Assembly: GCA_030600695.1 (NCBI GenBank) | Contig: JAUVLO010000004.1 | Span: forward strand, 1-32,000 | Direction of reading: 5' to 3' | Origin: Methanosarcinales archaeon | Lineage (GTDB): Archaea > Halobacteriota > Methanosarcinia > Methanosarcinales > Methanocomedenaceae | DNA length: 32,000 nt | Shown: in pieces, positions 6,544 to 29,857 of the stretch | Layout: every line of letters starts with the position of its first letter | Numbering within the stretch: position 1 is the stretch's first letter | The notes under the pieces: generated by a model | Database searches by the model: none | Told to the model about the DNA's origin: nothing | The model's input: only the letters and a program-made list of their open reading frames with translations | Position numbers and translations under genes: made by a program

Positions 6544-7279
6544 TGATGAGCATCCCATCCTTATCGAATTTCAATGAGTTCGTAGTTCGCTGGTGCCATT
6601 CTTCACCAAGCTTCAAGGCTTCATCCCTGTTGAAATCACCTATCTCCACATCCTCGTCAGTGAATCCGGATATGGACGACATAGGTATGTACAGTTTCTC
6701 AGCCCCGTGCTTGAACACAAGATTCCCGGCATCAATGGAAATAGTCTCACCGATCCTCTGCCCGTGCTGCACCACGAACTTGCAGAGTATGTCCTGTTTT
6801 GATATGGGTTTTTCCTCATCCTGCCCCTGGTCGGGTGGTTGGGATTGAGGAGCTCTTAGTGGTTCGGCAGGTTGGGGTTGAGGGGCTTTTATTGGTGCGG
6901 CAGGTTCACCTGGCACTTCTTTTTCGGCCTGCGCCTTTGATGGAACCGGATGGGGTATGGACATCGAGTGCCAGTCCAGATCGTCATGTTTGTGTTCCCA
7001 TTTGCTGCCCACCTGCCTGCTCTGTTTTGTTTGATTTTCATCCTTCCCCGGGCTACCGGGTGCTGCCTCTGCACCTACACTTTTCTGTTCAACCGCAGAA
7101 CCCTGGGCAGAATGCACATTCCCGGCAGCTACTACTGGCTTTTTGTCTTCCCCGGCAACTACCACCGGCTTCTTATCTTCACCGGTAGTTGCTACCTGCT
7201 TCTTATCTTTCCCGGCAGCACCGGAATCATCTGTCCCACATCGCCCTATTAGTTTGTTGAAAGTGTCTTTAAATCCCAT
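6536..7279 (-). CDS. Hypothetical protein with a disordered repeat-rich N-terminal two-thirds and a compact C-terminal domain
   Basis: 247 aa. Contains 10-aa tandem repeats GKDKKQVATT/GEDKKPVVVA/GEDKKPVVAA and a PQ-rich stretch. The C-terminal ~85 aa (KFVVQHGQRIGETISIDAGNLVFKHG...) looks globular. Lies in an apparent operon with pth2. Confidence 0.6.
   Translation of the reverse strand: MGFKDTFNKLIGRCGTDDSGAAGKDKKQVATTGEDKKPVVVAGEDKKPVVAAGNVHSAQGSAVEQKSVGAEAAPGSPGKDENQTKQSRQVGSKWEHKHDDLDWHSMSIPHPVPSKAQAEKEVPGEPAAPIKAPQPQPAEPLRAPQSQPPDQGQDEEKPISKQDILCKFVVQHGQRIGETISIDAGNLVFKHGAEKLYIPMSSISGFTDEDVEIGDFNRDEALKLGEEWHQRTTNSLKFDKDGMLIND
7121..7210. repeat. In-gene tandem repeat, 3 x 30 nt
   Basis: cccggcagctactactggctttttgtcttc / cccggcaactaccaccggcttcttatcttc / accggtagttgctacctgcttcttatcttt. 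These encode the 10-aa repeats of the 6536..7279 protein. Confidence 0.85.
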
Positions 7280-10221: not shown

Positions 10222-10827
10222 TTAGTATTCAAGCATGACTTTTGCTTTTATTTGAGCTACATCTTGTTCTATCATTGAAATCCTCTCATCAAAATGAGAC
10301 CTAAAATCATCTTTAGTGGAGCGGATTTCGGATGTTATTTCTATTCTGTTTTGATCGATTTTACCACTAAGATTATCTCCAAGATGATCGATCTTACCAC
10401 CAAGATAATCGATCTTACCACCAAGATTATCTCCAAGATAATCGATCTTACCACCAACTCCATCGATTTTTTGGCTGAGATTTGAGTTCATTTCTCTCAT
10501 ATATCTCACTGCTGCATCCATTCTTTCGTAAGTTGCTGTGGTCAGGTCTTCTTCTCTAATAACATCAAATGTTCTATACTCACCAGTTGGCTTTTTATAA
10601 ACCACGTCAATTTTTTCTACGCGTATAGGGTACTGAGTAATATTAATTTTTTCAAGCAATTCTTTGATATCGTCTTCTTTCCCTTCTGAGATAATCTGCA
10701 CTGTCCCGTCATCAAGATTTTTAACATATCCATTAAGATTCAGATTAAAAGCGATCTCATCAATGAAATCTCTGAAACCTGCTTTCTGAACTCTACCGTA
10801 TACTATGATCTCTGCACGTTTTTCCAT
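10222..10827 (-). CDS. Acylphosphatase-like domain fused to a 7/11-residue tandem-repeat and coiled-coil C-terminal region
   Basis: The N-terminus AEIIVYGRVQKAGFRDFIDEIAFNLNLNGYVKNLDDGTVQIISEG is the acylphosphatase signature. The C-terminus holds repeats GVGGKID/YLGDNLGGKID/YLGGKID/HLGDNLSGKID. Confidence 0.75.
   Translation of the reverse strand: MEKRAEIIVYGRVQKAGFRDFIDEIAFNLNLNGYVKNLDDGTVQIISEGKEDDIKELLEKINITQYPIRVEKIDVVYKKPTGEYRTFDVIREEDLTTATYERMDAAVRYMREMNSNLSQKIDGVGGKIDYLGDNLGGKIDYLGGKIDHLGDNLSGKIDQNRIEITSEIRSTKDDFRSHFDERISMIEQDVAQIKAKVMLEY
10354..10470. repeat. In-gene tandem repeat with alternating 33-nt and 21-nt units
   Basis: atcgattttaccactaagattatctccaagatg / atcgatcttaccaccaagata / atcgatcttaccaccaagattatctccaagata / atcgatcttaccaccaactcc. 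Confidence 0.9.
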
Positions 10828-13625: not shown

Positions 13626-14102
13626 CTATAAAAGATCTAACAAATCATCCACAGTAATTATATCAACATTAATTAGTTCATAAACTCGTTCTTTAACGTT
13701 AAGAAGTGATTTCACATCCATAGTAACAAGCGGTATTGCATAATGATGTGCAAGTGCGACTATAGGTGCATCTTTTGGCTCTATTCTAAGTGCTTAGGCC
13801 AGTGCTATGTTTTCTTCCCTCCCTTTCACTTCTCTTAATACGGTTTTATCAAAGTCCAGTGGTGTGAATGTCGTTTTTACATAAGGTTCTCTAAATAAAG
13901 ACCAAATTGCAGTTTGGAGCAGATTGATATCCTTTCCGCTTTTGTGCCCTTCAAAAATGACATTATCACTAATTTCTTTTGCCAGATATGCAGAAATTAT
14001 TGGCTTGACATCTCCATTAAATATTTTTTCTAAAATATAGGTACATTTAGCGTCAGTTCTTAGAAATGCATGGATCCAGACACATGAATCTATTACAATC
14101 AT
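13626..14102 (-). pseudogene. vapC: VapC-type PIN-domain toxin interrupted by an in-frame TAA (13794-13796)
   Basis: Track ORF 13794..14102 (MIVIDSCVWI...) stops at TAA. The same frame continues for 55 codons: ALRIEPKDAPIVALAHHYAIPLVTMDVKSLL...DLL*. That segment carries the third and fourth conserved PIN acidic positions. Confidence 0.7.
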
Positions 14103-14470
14103 GCAGTTTCCTGCAACTCTTTATAGGCTTTTGCATATTTACTTTCTACTTCATTTTTCGTAATCTGTATAGATCTATCAATGGATTCTTTTGTATTTTC
14201 AGATCCAAGAGAGGATAGAATTTTCAGTGCTTCACTGGTTTTCATGGGTTTTTTCCATGCATTGAGCATGATTTTTTTCGTGTCCAGCGTTTCTTTGAAA
14301 AGATCAGATTTTAGATTATAGATGCTTAAGTCTTCTAAATAAGACAGGATTGCTTTTTTGACAAAATTCTCTCTGCTCTTTGTGGATTTTGATTGTATCG
14401 TTCTATCAATCTTGTGGGCTAAAAATTCGCCGATGTTAACTTTCGCTGCAGTTTCTGACATCCATATCAC
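14099..14470 (-). CDS. Putative VapB-type antitoxin (possible ribbon-helix-helix N-terminus)
   Basis: 123-aa ORF overlapping the PIN gene start by 4 nt. ...SRENFVKKAILSYLEDL resembles CopG/RHH helices. Confidence 0.55.
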   Translation of the reverse strand: MIWMSETAAKVNIGEFLAHKIDRTIQSKSTKSRENFVKKAILSYLEDLSIYNLKSDLFKETLDTKKIMLNAWKKPMKTSEALKILSSLGSENTKESIDRSIQITKNEVESKYAKAYKELQETA

Positions 14471-17734: not shown

Positions 17735-18532
17735 ATGCTTACATTCATCGGCATTGGCCTCTATGACGAAAAAGACATATCTGTCAAGGGCCTGGAAGCC
17801 ATCCGCAGCGCAGATCATGTATATGCTGAATTCTACACTTCGGCCCTTATGGGTACCACCATCAGGGAAATGGAAGCCCTCTATGGCAGGGAAATAACCA
17901 TACTGGGCCGTGAGGATGTGGAACAGCAGCCCGAATGGCTGCAACGTGCCCTGACTGAAAAAGTAGTCTTCCTCACTGCCGGCGATGCCATGGTCAGCAC
18001 CACCCACGTAGACCTGCGCATGCGGGCCCATGAACTGGGTATCAAGACCTCCATCATCCACGGCTCATCCATCCTCAGCGCCGTACCCGGCCTTACCGGC
18101 CTGCAAAATTACCGCTTCGGCAAATCCACAACAATCCCGCATCCGTACATCCATAAAGAGCGGACCATCATCTCCCATACCCCCTACGATATCATCAGGT
18201 CCAACCTGGATGGCGGCATGCACACCTTGGTCTTCCTTGATATCGACCCGGAAAAAGGATACATGACCATCAACCGGGGCTGTGAACTCCTGATGGAAGT
18301 GGATTCACAGCAGGACGAACCGGACCTGGAGCACCGCTTAATCATAGGTGTGGCAAGGGCCGGCTCCCCATCACCTGTAGTCGTAGCCCTGCCCATGGTT
18401 GAACTTGCAGATTACGACTTCGGTGGCCCCCTGCACATACTCGTGGTGCCGGCAGACCTTCATTTCATGGAAGCCGAAGCCCTGGTTAAACTTGCGGGTG
18501 CGCCAGAAGAGATACTGGATATGGGAAAATAA
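17735..18532 (+). CDS. dph5: Diphthine synthase (Dph5)
   Basis: MLTFIGIGLYDEKDISVKGLEAIRSADHVYAEFYTS... is the canonical tetrapyrrole-methylase-fold Dph5 N-terminus. Length is 265 aa. Confidence 0.9.
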   Translation: MLTFIGIGLYDEKDISVKGLEAIRSADHVYAEFYTSALMGTTIREMEALYGREITILGREDVEQQPEWLQRALTEKVVFLTAGDAMVSTTHVDLRMRAHELGIKTSIIHGSSILSAVPGLTGLQNYRFGKSTTIPHPYIHKERTIISHTPYDIIRSNLDGGMHTLVFLDIDPEKGYMTINRGCELLMEVDSQQDEPDLEHRLIIGVARAGSPSPVVVALPMVELADYDFGGPLHILVVPADLHFMEAEALVKLAGAPEEILDMGK

Positions 18533-18550
18533 AGCCCCAGCCGTCAACGA

Positions 18551-18581
18551 CCCCGGATTTCGCTAACGCTCAAATCCGGGG
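18551..18581 (+). terminator. Perfect 10-bp stem hairpin followed by a T-run, downstream of dph5
   Basis: ccccggattt-cgctaacgctc-aaatccgggg, with tttcttttttt about 25 nt further on. Confidence 0.35.
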
Positions 18582-18687
18582 CATCTTAGTCGATGCTCGG
18601 TGAAATTTCTTTTTTTAATTTTTATTAATTCTAAATAACATGAATATATATAAAAACTTAAGTAAAATGTAATAATACATTATATAA

Positions 18688-19611
18688 ATGAAATTCTTTG
18701 AATGGATGTGGGGGAAAATTGGTTGGTTTATCTCACTCACAATTGCCTCTTTGTTATCAATTACTGTTGTAAATATTCCAGATATTTTACTTAAATTTGA
18801 AATATTAATAGGTTTATTGGTATCAGGATTGTTTGTTCTGTTATTATTTTATAGTATTAATTTTCATCAAGATTATGAAAGGATAATGCTATCACAAAGA
18901 GTCCCGATGGATGCTTTTTTGAACAAAGTACATAAAAAAATAATATTTAATGATGTGACTTTTACAGAAAAACAGGCAGAAATTAGAATCTTTCGGGAAA
19001 TTTATAACAATATGATTGTTTCAAACGAAATTTATGACCGATTTAAAGTTAAAATATCTTCCAAGACTGATGTCCCTCATATTGAAGAAATTACAGTTAA
19101 AAGAGGAGATAAAACAATAGCACTAAATGAACTTGATAGTGATACTGTTAATCCAATACGTTGTTTTGAAATAGATAGTAATGATGTAGATCTTTCTGAT
19201 CCTTTAAAAAAGAAAATAGAATTTTTTGTGCCACTTCATTTAAAAGCAGGCAAAACTTGCGAATTTGAATTGATTTACCCTTCTAAAGCATATAAAAATG
19301 CCTTAGAAGGAAAAGAAGATTTTGTTCAATTACAAGTGAACCGTATTACAGAGGAATTAATATTAGAGGTAATATTAAATGGAGAAATGGAAAAAGAATT
19401 CAGATTGACTCCTTGTGTAGATGTAGATGGTACTAGATTGACACATAAGATTTTCGATGCATCTTTAGAACGAATGAAAAGAACGGAATCAAATTTAAAA
19501 GAACGACCAAAATATTATGACAATAATGTATTATGGAAAATTGAAAGACCAAAAATTGGTTATAATTATCGAATGTATTTTAGACTTTTACCAAAAAATA
19601 GACGTTCCTAA
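18688..19611 (+). CDS. Orphan protein with two N-terminal TM helices and a beta-rich soluble domain, in an AT-rich islet
   Basis: 307-aa ORF with Lys/Asn/Ile-rich codon usage, clearly more AT-rich than its neighbours. No family recognised. Confidence 0.6.
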   Translation: MKFFEWMWGKIGWFISLTIASLLSITVVNIPDILLKFEILIGLLVSGLFVLLLFYSINFHQDYERIMLSQRVPMDAFLNKVHKKIIFNDVTFTEKQAEIRIFREIYNNMIVSNEIYDRFKVKISSKTDVPHIEEITVKRGDKTIALNELDSDTVNPIRCFEIDSNDVDLSDPLKKKIEFFVPLHLKAGKTCEFELIYPSKAYKNALEGKEDFVQLQVNRITEELILEVILNGEMEKEFRLTPCVDVDGTRLTHKIFDASLERMKRTESNLKERPKYYDNNVLWKIERPKIGYNYRMYFRLLPKNRRS

Positions 19612-19705
19612 TTCCCGTCTTCCTCTTCAAAAAAGGATAAAAAATTATTACATATCATCATAACCTACCACCTTTGTATATTATCAATTTAATCTAAGTA
19701 CTGCT

Positions 19706-19745
19706 TAGTATTTACTAGTATTTATTAGTATTTACTAGTATTTAA
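19706..19745. repeat. Tandem repeat, 4 x 10 nt
   Basis: tagtatttac tagtatttat tagtatttac tagtatttaa, about 95 nt downstream of the orphan gene. Confidence 0.85.
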
Positions 19746-20029
19746 TTTTGTGTTCCTATTCGAGGGGCCACATTTTAAAAATTTGTTTTATACCAATCAA
19801 AGTCATATGTCAAATTAAAAATAATTTAATACCCATTTCTACTCCGAGCATGAACCACCCATCCCGCAATAACTATCCTCGTACTAACAGTACAGGGTCT
19901 TCGTATTCTTAAATACTCCCATTTGACCCACAGGTTCCTACGCCTGCCGTAACAATTTTCCACCTCGCTTAAAATGTTTATATAAGCTTTAACAAAGTAC
20001 CATCCACCAGGTCACGCCTACAGTTTAAC

Positions 20030-21487: not shown

Positions 21488-21581
21488 TTAACTTGCTCTG
21501 TATTTTGGCGGCTAAATATATTAGCTTGCATATTAGCTTGCATCCAAATGATTTTATTATAACAAAACATCAGGTAGTTCG

Positions 21582-21984: not shown

Positions 21985-23814
21985 ATGAAACTGGTACTTG
22001 ATACAAGCGTGATCATTGGAGGCCGTATTACTTCCCTTCTCGATGCCGGGGAATACAGGGATTCTACCATAATCGTGCCTGAGGCTGTGGTGGCCGAGAT
22101 AGAATCACAGGCAAACCGGCATCGTGAGTCCGGGTATAATGGACTTGAGGAACTGGGAAAGCTGCGTGAGATGGCAAATCTTGGCCAGATCGAACTCGAA
22201 TTTGCAGGAAAGCGGCCGGGTCCCGCACAGGTGGAACTGGCAAGAACAGGAGAGATCGATGCCATGATACGGCAGGTTGCACTTGACTGTGGTGCCACTT
22301 TCATGACCGGGGATCGGGTGCAGTCCATGATAGCTGATGCCAGGGGCCTGGAAGTCATATTCCTGCCTCCGGGGAAGACTGAGGCCAAAGCTACTGCCAT
22401 AGAGGAATTCTTCACACCTGACACAATGTCAGTGCATCTCAAGGACAATGTGGAGCCGCTTGCTAAAAAGGGTTCCATCAAGGATATCCAGCTTACCAGG
22501 ATAGGTGATACCCCCTGCACTGAGGATGAGCTCAGGTCAATGGCCAGGGAACTTATCGAAAGGACAAAAAGGGACCCTGACAGCTTCGTAGAGATGGAAT
22601 ACGACGGTGCGACAGTGCTCCAGCTTGGGAACATGAGAATCGCAATCGCTTCCCCGCCCTTTTCGGACGGCATGGAGATTACTGCGGTGCGCCCGGTGGC
22701 ATTGGTGTCCATGGACGATTACAGGATGGCAGGGGAACTGAAGCAGCGACTGGCAGGCCTGCAGCGTGGTGTACTTATAGCAGGTCCGCCGGGAGCTGGA
22801 AAATCCACATTCGCCGCAGGGGTGGCAGAGTTCCTGCAAAGCTGCAGCAAGATCGTCAAGACAATGGAATCCCCCAGGGACCTGTCAGTAGAAGATGCAA
22901 TTACCCAGTATTCGCCGCTGGAAGGGAGTATGGAGAAGACAGCAGATCTGCTGCTGCTTGTCAGGCCCGATTATACTATTTACGACGAGTTGCGCAAGAC
23001 CTCGGATTTCCAGGTGTTCGCTGATATGAGGCTGGCCGGAGTGGGCATGGTGGGCGTGGTTCATGCCAACAGGCCAGTGGATGCTATCCAGAGGCTTATC
23101 GGCAGGGTGGATCTGGGTATGATACCCCAGGTGGTGGATACGGTGATATTCATTGACAAGGGAGAAGTGGCCAGTGTGCAGGATATCAAGTTCACTGTAA
23201 AAGTGCCTCATGGTATGACCGAATCCGACCTGGCTCGCCCGGTGATCACGGTGACGGACTTTGAGAGCGACAGGACCGAGTTTGAGATATACACATACGG
23301 CGAACAGGTAGTGGTAATGCCCACAGCCGGAACCCAGGAGGCTGTCCCTTCTGCATGGGGACTGGCTGCAGAACGTATACGCGATGAGTTTCGCCGTAAG
23401 GTGCACGGGCCTGTTAAGGTTGAATTGAGCGGGGATGACAGGGCGACCCTGTGGGTCAATGATATTGACATCCCTAAAGTGATTGGCAAGGGCGGAAGGA
23501 ACATCGAGATGATGGAAAAAAGACTGGGCATCCATATAGATGTTAGACCCCTTGACAGCAGCCATGTGCCGGTGGAAGGGGAGTTAAGGAAAACAATTGT
23601 TCCTGAAATCTCAATGAAAAAGAAACACATAATATTAAAATCGTCCGGAGTGCCCGGGGCGGATGTGGAAGTGATGGTGGAGGGAGACGTTATCTTTACT
23701 GCTACTGTGGGGCGAAAAGGTGATATAAGGATTGTCAGGGATTCTGATATTGGTGGCCGGTTACAGGAAGCATTGCGCGATGACCTGGAGATCAGTATCC
23801 GGACAATCAGCTGA
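21985..23814 (+). CDS. PIN domain - PilT-like ATPase - KH domain protein (COG1855-type archaeal ATPase)
   Basis: N-terminal PIN (KLVLDTSVIIGG...), Walker A GPPGAGKST, and a C-terminal KH-like IPKVIGKGGRNIEMMEKRLG. Confidence 0.85.
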   Translation: MKLVLDTSVIIGGRITSLLDAGEYRDSTIIVPEAVVAEIESQANRHRESGYNGLEELGKLREMANLGQIELEFAGKRPGPAQVELARTGEIDAMIRQVALDCGATFMTGDRVQSMIADARGLEVIFLPPGKTEAKATAIEEFFTPDTMSVHLKDNVEPLAKKGSIKDIQLTRIGDTPCTEDELRSMARELIERTKRDPDSFVEMEYDGATVLQLGNMRIAIASPPFSDGMEITAVRPVALVSMDDYRMAGELKQRLAGLQRGVLIAGPPGAGKSTFAAGVAEFLQSCSKIVKTMESPRDLSVEDAITQYSPLEGSMEKTADLLLLVRPDYTIYDELRKTSDFQVFADMRLAGVGMVGVVHANRPVDAIQRLIGRVDLGMIPQVVDTVIFIDKGEVASVQDIKFTVKVPHGMTESDLARPVITVTDFESDRTEFEIYTYGEQVVVMPTAGTQEAVPSAWGLAAERIRDEFRRKVHGPVKVELSGDDRATLWVNDIDIPKVIGKGGRNIEMMEKRLGIHIDVRPLDSSHVPVEGELRKTIVPEISMKKKHIILKSSGVPGADVEVMVEGDVIFTATVGRKGDIRIVRDSDIGGRLQEALRDDLEISIRTIS

Positions 23815-23859
23815 AAATTGATAATTGATATATATAATAACTACAATACTTTTGATACT

Positions 23860-24000
23860 ATGATGCGTTATTGTCCGGAATGTGAAGGAAAAATGAACTT
23901 GTTCAGGTATCCTACAATGAAACGGTTTGACCACCTGGGTCGAAAACTTGTTATTTACAAATGTGTTGAATGTGGACATGAAGTAGAGTATGCAGAATAA
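23860..24000 (+). CDS. Small C4 zinc-ribbon protein
   Basis: MMRYCPECEGKMN...YKCVECGHEVEYAE has two CxxC pairs. The ATG at 23860 lies within track ORF 23818..24000. Confidence 0.45.
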   Translation: MMRYCPECEGKMNLFRYPTMKRFDHLGRKLVIYKCVECGHEVEYAE

Positions 24001-24049
24001 TGCTGTTACTTTGTTCAAAAAAATAATCTGTCCGCTATCTATCACTTTA

Positions 24050-24103
24050 GATGTTAATTAGCTATAACTGATGTTGAATAAATAACAGATGTTGAATAAT
24101 CAG
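24050..24103. repeat. Tandem repeat, about 3 x 18-20 nt
   Basis: gatgttaattagctataact / gatgttgaataaataaca / gatgttgaataatcag. Confidence 0.7.
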
Positions 24104-24147
24104 TATTAGCAAAAATAACTACAGGCAGCCGGAAATGAAGTTGGCTG

Positions 24148-24267
24148 CCATCACTGGCACTATATAGTCGTTCTAAACCATCACTGGTACCATATAGTCA
24201 TTCCCAACCACTACTGGTACTGTAATAGTCGTTCTAAACCATCACTGGTACTGCAATAGTTATTATC
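24148..24267. repeat. Tandem repeat, 4 x 30-31 nt, abutting the stop codon of the KaiC-like gene
   Basis: ccatcactggcactatatagtcgttctaaa / ccatcactggtaccatatagtcattcccaa / ccactactggtactgtaatagtcgttctaaa / ccatcactggtactgcaatagttattatc. Confidence 0.9.
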
Positions 24268-25033
24268 AGAATACTGTATAGACCTCTTCGTGCGGATGCA
24301 CAATTACCCCAGTTGTGGTAATTTCATAGGGATGGATCTTCTTGCTGTGGTCAGAGCCGCGCATCTTAAATATTTCAAGGCTGCGCACCCTTACATTTTC
24401 CATCCTCTTGTAATACAGGGCAATAGTCCCCTCGGTCACGAAGTTCTCAACTCCGAAACGACTTGGATGATCATCATCCACAACTTCGGAGGTCATCATT
24501 GAAGTCAGGCCCAGTATTTCCAGGGTGGTGGACAGTTTTAACAGTTCCACACGTATCTTGGCCGGGTCCTGTAGATAGAATCCAATAGATGTGGTGGAAT
24601 CTACTACTGCCCGTTTGGCATCGATCTCTTCCTGGATCATTATGATCTGGTCCATCATGGAACGCATGTCAAAGGGTCTCACGTCAACGTATTTTTCCTG
24701 TGATGGAATACCGATCTTGGTAGACGCCGCATCAATAATGGCAAGTTTCCCCTCATCCTCCAGTTTCTTCAGGTCCCAGCCGAATACTTTTGCATTGTCC
24801 CTGATGTGCTCAGGGCGCTCCTCAGTTGCTACAATAATGCCGTTCTCATTGTATTTGGTGATGCCGTTGTAAATGAATTGAAGCGCAAGAATGGATTTTC
24901 CAGCCCCTGAAGTTCCTGATATCAAGTATGAGTGGTCCCTTAACAGGCCGCCTTCGCAAAGCTCATCAAAACCTTCTATCCCGGTTGGAACGCGGGACAA
25001 TTCATCCTTAACATCGTTTGTATTTCCGTTCAT
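24266..25033 (-). CDS. Single-domain KaiC/RadA-like RecA-superfamily ATPase
   Basis: PTGIEGFDELCEGGLLRDHSYLISGTSGAGKSILALQFIYNG with Walker A and Walker B (AVVDS). 255 aa. Confidence 0.85.
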   Translation of the reverse strand: MNGNTNDVKDELSRVPTGIEGFDELCEGGLLRDHSYLISGTSGAGKSILALQFIYNGITKYNENGIIVATEERPEHIRDNAKVFGWDLKKLEDEGKLAIIDAASTKIGIPSQEKYVDVRPFDMRSMMDQIIMIQEEIDAKRAVVDSTTSIGFYLQDPAKIRVELLKLSTTLEILGLTSMMTSEVVDDDHPSRFGVENFVTEGTIALYYKRMENVRVRSLEIFKMRGSDHSKKIHPYEITTTGVIVHPHEEVYTVF

Positions 25034-25281
25034 TATGATTCATCCGTTGATTTAATAATTATATAATAACACATCTTATATAAAGTCATCATTATAATGA
25101 TAATCCCACACGTTATTATGATAACTTAAGTTATCCCATATATTATAAATCTTAGTACGATATAAAAATAAGTTATACATATTTAGATGAAGTCAAGTAA
25201 TAATTTTAACATGTGGAGTATATTATAAATATATGTATATATCCATATTAATCAGTACATTTTAAAATCCAATTATCTCAA

Positions 25282-25322
25282 CATTTTACTAATACATATC
25301 CCAGCATTTTACTAATACATAT
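25282..25322 (+). promoter_or_regulatory. Two identical 18-nt boxes cattttactaatacatat, 23 nt apart, upstream of pan
   Basis: The boxes lie at 25282-25299 and 25305-25322. A related box is upstream of cdc48 at 31162. Confidence 0.4.
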
Positions 25323-27318: not shown

Positions 27319-27369
27319 CATGTTAATATTATTGTTATTAATATTCATGTTAATATTATTGTTAATATG
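27319..27369. repeat. Tandem repeat, 2 x ~25 nt, just downstream of the AMMECR1 gene
   Basis: catgttaatattattgttattaatatt / catgttaatattattgttaatatg. Confidence 0.8.
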
Positions 27370-27417
27370 ATATTTGCGGCACAGTTCCAAAATCCAGTGA
27401 TATCAACAATTATATTA

Positions 27418-27627
27418 GACGCAGATTAACGCTGATTAACGCAGATGCAGTATCCACTTTAAATCTAAGGGTAATTTAAAAATTATTAGACAGGATTAAC
27501 AGGATCGACAGGATATACCGCAACGCAACATCCTGTAAATTCTGTAAATCCGGTCAAAATACCATGCTTTTTGAAGTGGATACCAGATGCAACCTTAAAT
27601 CAGCGTAAATCTGCGTGAATCAGCGTC
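27418..27627 (+). repeat. Nested stuttered hairpins: outer CGCAGAT/CGCTGAT arms enclosing an inner ACAGGAT hairpin (27489-27555)
   Basis: Outer arms are gacgcagattaacgctgattaacgcagat and aaatcagcgtaaatctgcgtgaatcagcgtc. The inner hairpin is gacaggattaacaggatcgacaggatat-accgcaacgcaac-atcctgtaaattctgtaaatccggtc. Confidence 0.8.
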
Positions 27628-27688
27628 TTGAAAATAACTGGAAAATGGGACAGTGTCGATATTTGCAAGGAAAAGGAAGTAAAATATA

Positions 27689-27994: not shown

Positions 27995-28058
27995 CAGTTG
28001 CCCACATATTCCAACGTTACCTGCATATTTCAACAGGTATCTGCATATTCCAACAGTT
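27995..28058. repeat. Tandem repeat, about 3 x 19-20 nt, starting at the first base after the tfs stop codon
   Basis: cagttgcccacatattccaa / cgttacctgcatatttcaa / caggtatctgcatattccaa / cagtt. Confidence 0.8.
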
Positions 28059-28250
28059 TTGATCGTGACTATGAAGAGTTAATGCCTACGATGCCGTGAT
28101 GCTTTCCTGAATGTTGCATCATCGTTTGTGATGTTCGTCGTGTATTACAGTGTTCACTCGCGCCACAAACGCAGGTGTCCCCTTTCGTCTTCTTCTATAC
28201 TGTTGTTAGCACAATCTCCCACCATTTTAAACCACTCATGCTGTATATTC

Positions 28251-28655
28251 CTATATTTTATTTCCAGGATATCCTGGCGGTGTTGGCGCAGGAAATTGTG
28301 AACCAACCGATACCACATCTCCACTGTATGTCACGAAAACATTCACACGTTTATGCGTTCCATTAACTATCTTGATCGAAACTTGATACATCTCCTGTCC
28401 ATCGAAAACAGCTTTGCTCACATCGTAAATTTCATAATCGCTGTTATTTACCATAATAAGAGTTCTCGAATCATTTAAGGCAATGGACACAGCATCCTCT
28501 TCACTGATTTCCTTGTTCTCAAGACACCCACTTAACAAAATAGCTATAAATAAAATATAAATAGCAAGTATGGGGATCAGAACCCCATACCGATTGCCTA
28601 ATTCAACAATTTTCTTTCGATCCACATACATCATATTAATCCATCTACGAATCAA
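28251..28655 (-). CDS. Small membrane-anchored hypothetical protein
   Basis: 134 aa with one TM helix (YGVLIPILAIYILFIAILLSG) and a lipobox-like GC, followed by a small soluble domain. Located downstream of mfnA. Confidence 0.5.
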   Translation of the reverse strand: MIRRWINMMYVDRKKIVELGNRYGVLIPILAIYILFIAILLSGCLENKEISEEDAVSIALNDSRTLIMVNNSDYEIYDVSKAVFDGQEMYQVSIKIVNGTHKRVNVFVTYSGDVVSVGSQFPAPTPPGYPGNKI

Positions 28656-28723
28656 TCTTATATGAACGGATCATCCCAGGATATATCTATTGAGCCTTTC
28701 CAGTTACCCACGTATTCCAATAG

Positions 28724-29857
28724 CTACCCACATATTCCCTCAAGGTCATCCAGGAACTCATCCATCGCACTTTCACTAAGGTGCGGCATTATTACCAGTC
28801 TCATTCCCACCGGGTCCCGTGTTATTGACGTGGACCAGCCTTTTTTGGCAAGAGCCTGCCTTACAGCAGCAGTATCGCCCACGTCCAGTACCACCACGTT
28901 CATCACAGGGTCAACCAACGGCTCCACACCAAAACCCCTTGCACGCTCAACCAGCCGATGGGTCAGTCCCATGCAGTAATCCATCAGACTGCGGTATCCT
29001 TCCATACCAAGATGCCTCATAACAGCATATGAAGCTGCGACCACTGCCCCGCTGTGGGTCCCGCTTAGGGAATGCTGGGTATCGATGGTCAGGTAGGGTG
29101 TCCTGGTTTGCAGCCCTTCCAGGTGGGATGGGTCCCGAAACATCAGTCCACCTGCCGGAATGGTGCACAGTCCCATCTTATGTGGGTCGGCTGTCATGGA
29201 AGATACTCCTGGCAACCTGAAATCAAAATCATATTCCCTGTCAAGGAAGGGGATCACAAAGGCCCCGAATGCCGCATCCACATGCATGAACAGTTTCCTC
29301 TCCACAGCTATATCAGAAAGTTCCTTAATGGGATCGATCTGCCCGAATTCGGTAGTACCTGCTATACCCACAATTGCAACCGTATTGTCATCGATCAGCG
29401 ACTCCACCGACCCCGGGTCCACCCTGAAGCTGTCATCAAGTCCTGCCTTACGCAGTTCCATCTTCAAAATGTCAGCTATTTTATCGAATGAAAAATGTGC
29501 AGACTCGGGCACCACGATATTAGGCTTTGTACTCATTCCCGAATTCCTGGCAGCCCGTATGGCCTGTATATTGGATTCGGTGCCGCCGGTAGTAATATAG
29601 CCATGCACTGATGGGTCACCAAGCATACCACCCAGCATCCTGACTACCTTACATTCCAGTTCTTGAGTGCCAGGGAACAGCCCCGCATCACCCAGGTTGG
29701 TCTCGAAAAACATCTCGTGCGCAGCAACTGCGATTGGATGCGGGCGGGTGCACATGGCGCTTAACACCCGGTCATAGGATAGGTCCTTTGCCCTGTAACT
29801 TTCAAGCCTGTCCAGGATATCGTGTCTGGTCTCGCCCTTATCTCTCATATGTTGCAA
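28724..29857 (-). CDS. mfnA: L-tyrosine/L-aspartate decarboxylase MfnA (PLP, group II decarboxylase)
   Basis: ...SAMCTRPHPIAVAAHEMFFETNLGD...GYITTGGTESN...HVDAAFGAF...SMTADPHKMG carries the PLP Lys motif. Confidence 0.85.
   Translation of the reverse strand: MQHMRDKGETRHDILDRLESYRAKDLSYDRVLSAMCTRPHPIAVAAHEMFFETNLGDAGLFPGTQELECKVVRMLGGMLGDPSVHGYITTGGTESNIQAIRAARNSGMSTKPNIVVPESAHFSFDKIADILKMELRKAGLDDSFRVDPGSVESLIDDNTVAIVGIAGTTEFGQIDPIKELSDIAVERKLFMHVDAAFGAFVIPFLDREYDFDFRLPGVSSMTADPHKMGLCTIPAGGLMFRDPSHLEGLQTRTPYLTIDTQHSLSGTHSGAVVAASYAVMRHLGMEGYRSLMDYCMGLTHRLVERARGFGVEPLVDPVMNVVVLDVGDTAAVRQALAKKGWSTSITRDPVGMRLVIMPHLSESAMDEFLDDLEGICG

Follow-up and report, generated by a model that had tools for sequence, protein, structure and literature searches.

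The intergenic tandem repeats described here lie in a stretch of 32,000 nucleotides from a Methanosarcinales archaeon (contig JAUVLO010000004.1, positions 1 to 32,000), which is called the window throughout, and in two places they run right up to a stop codon, namely, that of a gene for a KaiC-like ATPase and that of tfs. We conclude that the arrays are quite likely locus-specific minisatellites, also called variable number tandem repeats (VNTRs), within short spacers of a chromosome of the anaerobic methanotrophic archaea of group ANME-2a, that they are probably neutral, and that they came from duplications spanning a stop codon. The initial annotation of the window had listed four arrays at or near gene ends and had taken their recurrent birth at stop codons as a sign of a mechanism or function tied to termination. 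All four arrays were recovered by Tandem Repeats Finder (TRF) and by parsing of the units at about the coordinates given there, and the four-unit array does reach the stop codon of the KaiC-like gene. As repeats they exceed chance, given their high TRF scores and the homologous arrays of other copy number in relatives. The termination-linked mechanism, on the other hand, is replaced in our interpretation by a selection filter acting on stop-spanning duplications.

Proposed origin of the arrays

The seed of an array would be a tandem duplication of 14-30 nt covering the last few codons of a gene, its stop codon and a few spacer bases behind it. The upstream copy would retain the frame and the stop codon so that the protein would be unchanged, and the extra copy would become non-coding 3' sequence. 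A tandem duplication that turns L-S-R into L-S-S-R leaves both original junctions intact; if S spans the stop codon the protein would not change, and if S lies inside the reading frame an insertion or a frameshift would result. Replication slippage or unequal recombination between the copies would then expand or contract the array, with the interiors remaining alike and the edges diverging. Such an array would be bounded on one side by the stop codon and on the other by a terminator hairpin, by the stop codon of a converging gene or by the promoter of the next gene. It would necessarily touch the stop codon because the ancestral spacers were only 3-23 nt long, and this contact needs no termination mechanism because the units copy the adjacent coding tail and its stop codon in short spacers. 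Slippage is the presumed step in this scheme (the study of Borg elements cites slippage of archaeal PolB and PolD on tandem repeats; PMC9879509), which is built on the anatomy of the repeats, the homology of units to coding tails, the variation in copy number, the conserved boundaries and the absence of the arrays from more distant relatives. Put more generally, in compact genomes with spacers of a few bases a duplication at a 3' end that spares the protein must span the stop codon or fall just behind it, hence minisatellites born from coding tails would be found next to stop codons, and this rule can be tested genome-wide without invoking a termination-linked mechanism. The features on which the argument draws are collected in Table 1.

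Table 1. Positions of the arrays and associated features in the window and, where indicated, in related loci
Feature	Position	Strand	Remarks
10-nt x3.9 array (TAGTATTTAC)	19706..19744		TRF; inside 1.48-kb insertion
Small Zn-ribbon gene, DUF7838-like	23861..24000	+	Pfam PF25208, sub-threshold, E=8.7e-6; orthologues in L001-L011
T7 run	24017..24023	-	second candidate U-tract for KaiC-sense transcripts; 17 nt past Zn-ribbon stop
Older 18-20-nt x3 array (GATGTTAATTAGCTATAACT / GATGTTGAATAAATAACA / GATGTTGAATAATCAGTATT)	24050..24107		sequence, TRF
T5 run just past hairpin	24111..24115	-	candidate archaeal U-tract termination signal, predicted from sequence
7-bp-stem hairpin	24124..24149	-	GGCAGCC (24124-24130), 12-nt loop, GGCTGCC (24143-24149); sequence, minimum free energy fold
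VNTR, 4 units of 30, 31, 30, 30 nt	24148..24268	-	read by eye and by TRF
KaiC-like ATPase gene	24266..25033	-	255 aa; Pfam PF06745, E=3.4e-77
~27-nt x2 duplication, window-specific	27319..27368		24 nt past AMMECR1 stop; TRF 27321-27368
Nested palindrome like a miniature inverted-repeat transposable element (MITE), 280 nt	27378..27657		AMMECR1-tfs spacer; inverted arms
tfs-mfnA array, left part, three 19-20-nt units	27995..28053		from first base past tfs stop
Strain-specific insertion splitting tfs-mfnA array	28054..28700		absent from L001, L004, L065, L067
tfs-mfnA array, right part, two units	28701..28739	-	past ~650-nt insertion
Gene X-dph5 arrays	L008 4053-4126; L009 10569-10670; L021 3644-3684; L010 4148-4227		in relatives

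The KaiC-like locus

The KaiC-like gene, on the minus strand, converges with a small Zn-ribbon gene on the plus strand, their ends lying at 24266 and 24000, respectively. Read in the KaiC sense, the units of the array between them are TGATAATAACTATTGCAGTACCAGTGATGG, TTTAGAACGACTATTACAGTACCAGTAGTGG, TTGGGAATGACTATATGGTACCAGTGATGG and TTTAGAACGACTATATAGTGCCAGTGATGG; TRF reports the array at 24148-24252 with a period of 30, 3.5 copies, 80% matches and a score of 145. The first unit (TGATAATAAC..., KaiC sense) contains the stop codon TGA (24266-24268, minus strand) together with an adjacent in-frame TAA, and the 31-nt length of the third unit breaks the reading frame. The last unit is fused to the hairpin with an overlap of 2 nt, the terminal GG of the unit opening the hairpin, and directly past the hairpin the minus strand reads TGTAGTTATTTTTGC. 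The same hairpin sequence is found in L001 and L002, and a near-identical one in L006 and L061-L069; in L007-L011 the KaiC-like stop codon is followed at once by another hairpin with T7-8 behind it (for these loci see below). The hairpin of the window is probably the terminator of the KaiC-like transcript and it appears to be the fixed distal boundary of the array; a consensus terminator scan was uninformative here since the 12-nt loop escapes detection.

The array was followed in relatives in two sets of sequences. L001-L012 are loci obtained by scanning species-representative genomes with the KaiC-like protein; they belong to ANME-2a / Ca. Methanocomedens bins, their proteins are 84-96% identical in amino acids to the KaiC-like protein, and their gene order is the same as in the window. 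L061-L069 are nine metagenome contigs from a scan with the hairpin as the pattern, and their flanks are 98.3-99.4% identical to L065. Between the same stop codon and hairpin there are four units in the window, two in L002 and in L006, one in L001, one plus a stub in L004 and none in L007-L011. Neither L003 nor L005 has a unit; both have lost the entire spacer along with the Zn-ribbon gene. The nine contigs carry 2, 3, 7, 7, 8, 9, 9, 10 and 10 units. Thus, the comparison across strains that the initial annotation called for gives 0-10 copies at this locus. All alleles share one layout: the stop-side unit, which invariably includes the stop codon, and the hairpin-side unit, which is invariably the CAGTACCAGTGATGG variant joined to the hairpin, are each a variant of their own, and the units in between hardly differ. 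Such diverged edges around a uniform interior are the usual signature of a minisatellite that changes size internally. As a consequence the distance from the KaiC-like stop codon to the hairpin, the presumed 3' untranslated region (UTR) as which the array is likely to be transcribed, goes from ~23 nt to 120 nt in the window and to ~290 nt in relatives.

The unit itself can be related to the end of the gene. The 10-mer CTATACAGTA occurs both in its consensus and at the final codons of this gene (TAT ACA GTA, coding for Y T V), and the similarity between tail and unit is significant for the L002 unit, which is the least diverged (p=4e-4), and for the L065 unit (p=0.004); it is weaker for the more diverged units of the window (p=0.03 for unit 2 and 0.09 for unit 4). 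No copy of the 30-nt unit, of its core or of the hairpin was found beyond this locus in the window and in 60 loci, L001-L060. This agrees with the earlier view that the units are unrelated and that each array arose locally, and among the units of the different arrays none of 21 pairwise comparisons survived multiple testing, the two pairs at p~0.01 being low-complexity AT matches.

On the far side of the hairpin is the older array of 18-20-nt units, which TRF places at 24064-24099; both it and the hairpin are present as first described. It has two to three copies in L001 and L002 and one in L006 and the L061-L069 lineage, and its 18-nt unit has no significant similarity to the coding tail of the Zn-ribbon gene (p=0.15). 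There is no open reading frame (ORF) of at least 40 aa within 24001-24265; one minus-strand ORF (23761-24045) touches the spacer and lies outside the arrays. The converging pair of KaiC-like and Zn-ribbon (DUF7838-like) genes is kept across Methanosarcinales, with the Zn-ribbon gene lost in L003 and L005, and its conservation suggests that the two genes are functionally linked. In Methanosarcinaceae (L013, L015, L017 and L026) their stop codons are ~10 nt apart, and no independent arrays were found behind the KaiC-like orthologues there.

The tfs-mfnA locus

The array between tfs and mfnA provides the second case in which units can be traced to a coding tail. As noted before, it begins at the first base past the tfs stop codon; its three left-hand units occupy 27995-28014, 28015-28033 and 28034-28053, and TRF reports 28005-28056 with a period of 20, 2.7 copies and a score of 76. 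The initial annotation had missed the two right-hand units on the other side of a ~650-nt insertion. The last of these encodes the true C-terminus of MfnA, GGA ATA TGT GGG TAG, that is, G I C G and stop; the mfnA stop codon (CTA on the forward strand) is at 28724-28726 inside this unit, and the protein ends in EGICG. The units match the mfnA tail GGAATATGTGGGTAG, those of the left part with p=0.0006 and p=0.02. In particular, GGAATATGTGGG agrees with the mfnA tail at 12 of 12 positions (p=0.0006), GGAATACGTGGGTAA is a decayed copy of the tail that retains the stop codon at its end (p=0.0008), and for a 40-nt higher-order unit in L065 the alignment covers 29 nt of the tail (p=0.002). The sequence GGA ATA CGT GGG TAA is still present in one unit. 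The tfs-mfnA units are thus mfnA coding tails (EGICG and the stop codon) in a decayed state. If units recombined, MfnA could exchange its terminal residues, a neighbouring unit giving GIRG-stop for GICG-stop.

In L001 a single unit makes up the whole tfs-mfnA interval, with 3 nt between the two stop codons (TAA CAG CTA). The array touches the tfs stop codon because a distance of only 3 nt once separated tfs and mfnA. Four units are present in each of L004 and L067, ~16 (339 nt) in L065, three plus two in the window and none in L007; copy number thus runs from 1 to ~16 among the loci that have the array.

The insertion that splits the array in the window carries an orphan gene of 134 aa (28251-28655, minus strand) with an N-terminal hydrophobic segment and no Pfam family. 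At the same site, after three units, L006 (1-3300) has at least 3.3 kb of unrelated secreted/membrane-protein genes and a subtilase-like fragment. The presence of the orphan gene inside the array with units on both sides, and of at least 3.3 kb of secreted-protein genes at this site in L006, would fit the view that the units are attachment-site remnants left by repeated integration and excision of cassettes at the 3' end of tfs. We consider this very unlikely: the units copy the mfnA coding tail, arrays of 4 and ~16 units are free of insertions in L004, L067 and L065, no integrase was seen nearby in the window or at the L006 insertion site, and none of the KaiC alleles has an insertion in its array. 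Their origin by duplication of the mfnA tail remains the explanation that we favor.

Arrays at other sites

A third independent locus that touches a stop codon occurs in more distant ANME-2a relatives (L008, L009, L021 and L010; Table 1), where the stop codon TGA of the gene upstream of dph5, which we call gene X, is followed directly by TTACACC.... The array consists of ~5-8 copies of 14-nt units (TTAACACCGTATAC), with a different unit in L010, and it ends at a block 46 nt before the start of dph5. This block, which is kept in the relatives and in the window, is presumably the dph5 promoter.

The two remaining arrays of the initial annotation are better described as flanks of insertions. The duplication of a ~27-nt unit beyond AMMECR1 is 24 nt from the stop codon, as had been stated, and is single copy in L002. 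Next to it is the MITE-like element, flanked by the 9-bp direct repeat GATATTTGC (27369-27377 and 27658-27666), with nested arms at 27419-27446/27598-27626, 27450-27477/27556-27583 and 27486-27514/27530-27558 and three 9-10-nt arrays detected by TRF; the element is absent from the close relatives L001, L002, L004 and L006. The 10-nt array behind an orphan gene was also found, but it is 94 nt past the stop codon and not at it. It belongs to a strain-specific insertion of 1.48 kb (18534-20010, ~25% G+C) between the converging dph5 and NYN genes, in which the 307-aa orphan gene has no Pfam family. In L001 just 27 nt separate the two stop codons here, in L003 another insert (0.8 kb) takes its place, and the dph5-NYN spacer looks like an insertion hotspot between converging genes.

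Strain-specific duplications are also found in 5' spacers. In the divergent promoter spacer at 21518-21541 ATATTAGCTTGC is present twice, with one copy in L003 and L006 and three in L002, and in the divergent spacer at 25274-25319 a 23-nt unit is present twice, with one copy in L001. These 5'-spacer duplications reach only ~2-3 copies, in contrast to 8-16 in the stop-flanked arrays, which fits selection on promoter geometry. In a census of ~239 kb of ANME-2a sequence, with spacer lengths of 15.0 kb (convergent), 10.6 kb (divergent) and 8.4 kb (co-directional), a hand count gave ~4-6 independent arrays in each spacer class. The census is approximate because the loci are mostly homologous and genes were called with a crude codon-usage caller, which missed the Zn-ribbon gene and called one spurious ORF. 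Thus, of the earlier statement that arrays are placed at stop codons, it holds that three well-developed loci start there, and a general preference for 3' ends is not borne out by the census.

Repeats inside genes behave differently in that the periods of TRF arrays there are nearly all divisible by 3. Examples in the window are the 33- and 30-nt repeats at 6837-6906 and 7121-7219 in a gene for a DUF5749 protein (GEDKKPVV repeats) and the 54-nt repeats at 10354-10457 in the gene of an acylphosphatase-domain protein. In L066 (1900-2138) and L069 (3679-3982) TPASIK/TPVPDE repeats are encoded by 13-17 copies of an 18-nt unit, the number of copies being variable.

Termination, binding sites and RNA structure

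It is possible, in principle, that the arrays are functional 3'-UTR or termination modules, for example pausing or loading sites of the termination machinery, elements of mRNA stability or insulators between converging transcripts, and that their birth at stop codons was selected. This would account for the start of the three well-developed arrays at a stop codon. RNA of the KaiC array in the KaiC sense folds better than shuffled sequences (z=-3.15), and each junction of KaiC units can form a hairpin of 6-8 bp in all lineages. Moreover, the tfs-mfnA and gene X-dph5 units are poor in G (5-10% G in the sense of the upstream gene), which would give an unstructured RNA. However, archaeal termination has been attributed to U-tracts of at least 4 U acting together with aCPSF1 (PMC8716108, PMC7515710), and no run of four or more T was found in the units on either transcribed strand, the longest being 3; the hairpin and the T5 and T7 runs lie beyond the KaiC array. 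The low G content is also that of the adjacent promoter block. The KaiC junction hairpins show no compensatory changes; their potential to form is inherited with the unit by descent and hence is no evidence of function, and as single-stranded DNA the same hairpins could just as well favor slippage. The units have unrelated sequences, near and far relatives with the same genes do without the arrays, and copy number spans 1 to 16. At the gathering score tRNA-Gly was the sole Rfam match in the window, and over 23800-24400 at E<=1 there was only a chance snoRNA match of 17.5 bits. The claim of a mechanism or function tied to termination is therefore not supported, because the arrays are missing in relatives that carry the genes, vary in copy number, contain no U-tract and arise also in 5' spacers, and we regard the arrays as unlikely to be functional modules of this kind.

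Another function that was considered is binding of a protein, the units being iteron-like or operator-like sites for a regulator or a replication protein. In favor of this are the head-to-tail order and the short near-palindromic stretches within units, ACTATATAGT for the 30-nt unit and AACAnnTGTT for the 18-nt one. Yet the palindromes differ between lineages (CCAGTGATGG versus CCGGTAATGG), relatives do not have the arrays, copying of a coding tail accounts for the tfs-mfnA units, and no replication-initiator or partition gene turned up among the Pfam-scanned proteins of the window (30 ORFs). We therefore hold binding sites to be highly improbable. Iterons or origin recognition boxes of a replication origin were rejected as no initiator domain turned up in the 30 scanned ORFs and the arrays are absent in relatives, and a CRISPR array was rejected as the units are contiguous and have no spacers between them.

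Points that weigh against a neutral slippage origin

There are several points that do not sit well with our proposal that the arrays are neutral minisatellites derived from stop-spanning duplications. Homology to a coding tail is significant for two arrays only; the 18-, 27- and 14-nt units have none (p=0.15-0.53). The folding of the KaiC-sense RNA and the hairpins at the unit junctions mean that a role of the KaiC array at the level of RNA must be kept in consideration, and the neutrality of the arrays is itself an inference. The rate at which copy number changes is uncertain as well. The contigs L062 and L063 have 7 and 3 copies, and L066 and L068 have 2 and 7, with 0 mismatches over 1.5 kb of flank in each pair, and copy numbers in short-read metagenome assemblies may be collapsed. 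Finally, the window has ~41 arrays per 100 kb (TRF score at least 50), which is 4-5 times as many as homologous relatives, and plain slippage gives no account of this excess. The corresponding densities are 9 in L001-L006, 8 in L007-L012 plus L021, 7 in Methanosarcinaceae and 4 in other archaea. This gap may in part be an effect of assembly, contigs breaking at repeats, or it could mean that the strain is unusually prone to tandem duplication.

The differing copy numbers in contigs with identical flanks, together with the report from the study of Borg elements that assemblers often collapse tandem repeats (PMC9879509), raise the question whether mis-assembly could have produced the arrays or their copy numbers. 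This is extremely improbable for the arrays of the window. Its KaiC units are not an artefact of collapse because they differ at ~20% of positions, and four units so different are neither collapsed nor an unrolled loop; in addition, homologous arrays are found in independent assemblies from different projects.

Comparison with known repeat systems

Prokaryotic minisatellites have units of 10-40 nt, are used for strain typing and are presumed to change by slippage or unequal recombination. The arrays described here resemble them in being head-to-tail, locus-specific, mostly intergenic and variable in copy number between close strains; they consist of tandem units within the range of ~10-100 nt, and each unit is specific to its locus. 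What sets them apart from minisatellites in general, which have been treated as a class of small variable segments (PMC2884548), is that the seed can be traced to the adjacent coding tail and stop codon and that the host is an uncultured ANME-2a archaeon. A full-text literature search found no paper on tandem repeats in Methanocomedens, and a paper on hotspots in ANME-1 (PMC13385816) has nothing on tandem repeats at gene ends.

Within the literature on methane-oxidizing archaea the closest parallel is with the repeats of Borg elements of Methanoperedens (ANME-2d), which likewise have independent local origins, rapid changes in copy number, flanking partial repeats and starts within the ends of reading frames, as at the KaiC tail (CTATACAGTA) and the mfnA tail. 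The in-gene repeats of the window and its relatives with periods divisible by 3 also resemble the amino acid tandem repeats of Borgs. However, Borg repeats are perfect, are enriched in A, are found on giant linear elements and are reported to be virtually absent from host chromosomes (PMC9879509), whereas the arrays here are chromosomal, are ~80% alike in the window and near-perfect only in L061-L069, and are not clearly A-rich. The content of A is 31-36% in the main units, a figure without a genome-wide baseline, and T is the commonest base in two of them, C in one, and C and A are equal in another. We also considered that ANME-2a, and this strain especially, might have an active Borg-like process of array formation seeded at stop codons, in which the arrays tune the length of the 3' UTR, read-through and antisense overlap and serve as substrates for swaps of C-termini and capture of orphan genes; this is doubtful, though worth stating. 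Borg elements are, in any case, not the only place where methane-oxidizing archaea have fast-evolving tandem repeats.

Mycobacterial interspersed repetitive units (MIRUs) are similar to the present arrays in that they are tandem intergenic units of variable copy number set precisely against the ends of reading frames. MIRUs are, on the other hand, a single dispersed and apparently mobile family that inserts at start codons and contains a small frame that is coupled to the gene downstream (PMC12548453). In the present arrays the units differ from locus to locus, no frame spans an array and duplication of a coding tail is what brings them into contact with stop codons; the MIRU reading was rejected since the unit is not dispersed and there is no small coupled reading frame. 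Repetitive extragenic palindromic (REP), BIME and PU-type repeats also lie downstream of genes, often between converging genes, and vary in cluster size. They are dispersed palindromic families (PMC2884548), unlike the units here, which are unique to their loci and are direct repeats that are not palindromic.

Two practical consequences follow. The loci are high-resolution strain markers for uncultured ANME-2a populations, and units that keep stop codons and coding-like sequence are a hazard to annotation because they can mislead the calling of gene ends.

Genomic context and other observations

The window covers a chromosomal stretch of housekeeping genes from a methane-oxidizing archaeon of group ANME-2a (Ca. 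Methanocomedens-like). We take the region to be chromosomal and not an extrachromosomal element because ANME-2a bins have the same gene order and the same housekeeping neighbours, namely, PAN, tfs, dph5, hisI, mfnA and Trm5, which are syntenic in these bins. Besides the small Zn-ribbon protein and the KaiC-like ATPase, the window encodes the proteasome-activating nucleotidase PAN, AMMECR1, TFS, MfnA, an NYN-domain protein, a Trm5/TYW2-type methyltransferase, HisI, a PIN-KH ATPase and a nickel-insertion protein. The gene at 17735-18532 was assigned as a putative diphthine synthase by reading its translation. An exact-protein look-up returned no record for the KaiC-like protein. Coding DNA has ~50% G+C and the spacers have 22-35%.

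The first half of the window has a small overlapping gene pair at 1606-2101 (85 and 81 aa), which is toxin-antitoxin-like by arrangement only, and a PIN-domain gene at 13794-14470 adjoining a weak phage-integrase fragment (E=0.007). Together these suggest debris of mobile elements. A small repeat family is present at 1233-1435 and 2243-2453, whose inverted arms are CGCAAAG x3 and CTTTGCG x3; the two copies are 86% identical over 211 nt. A related insertion of 137 nt is found in the Trm5-hisI spacer of L061, L065, L066, L068 and L069, and it is present in some and missing from other metagenome contigs that are ~99% identical, so this repeat family looks to have been recently mobile.

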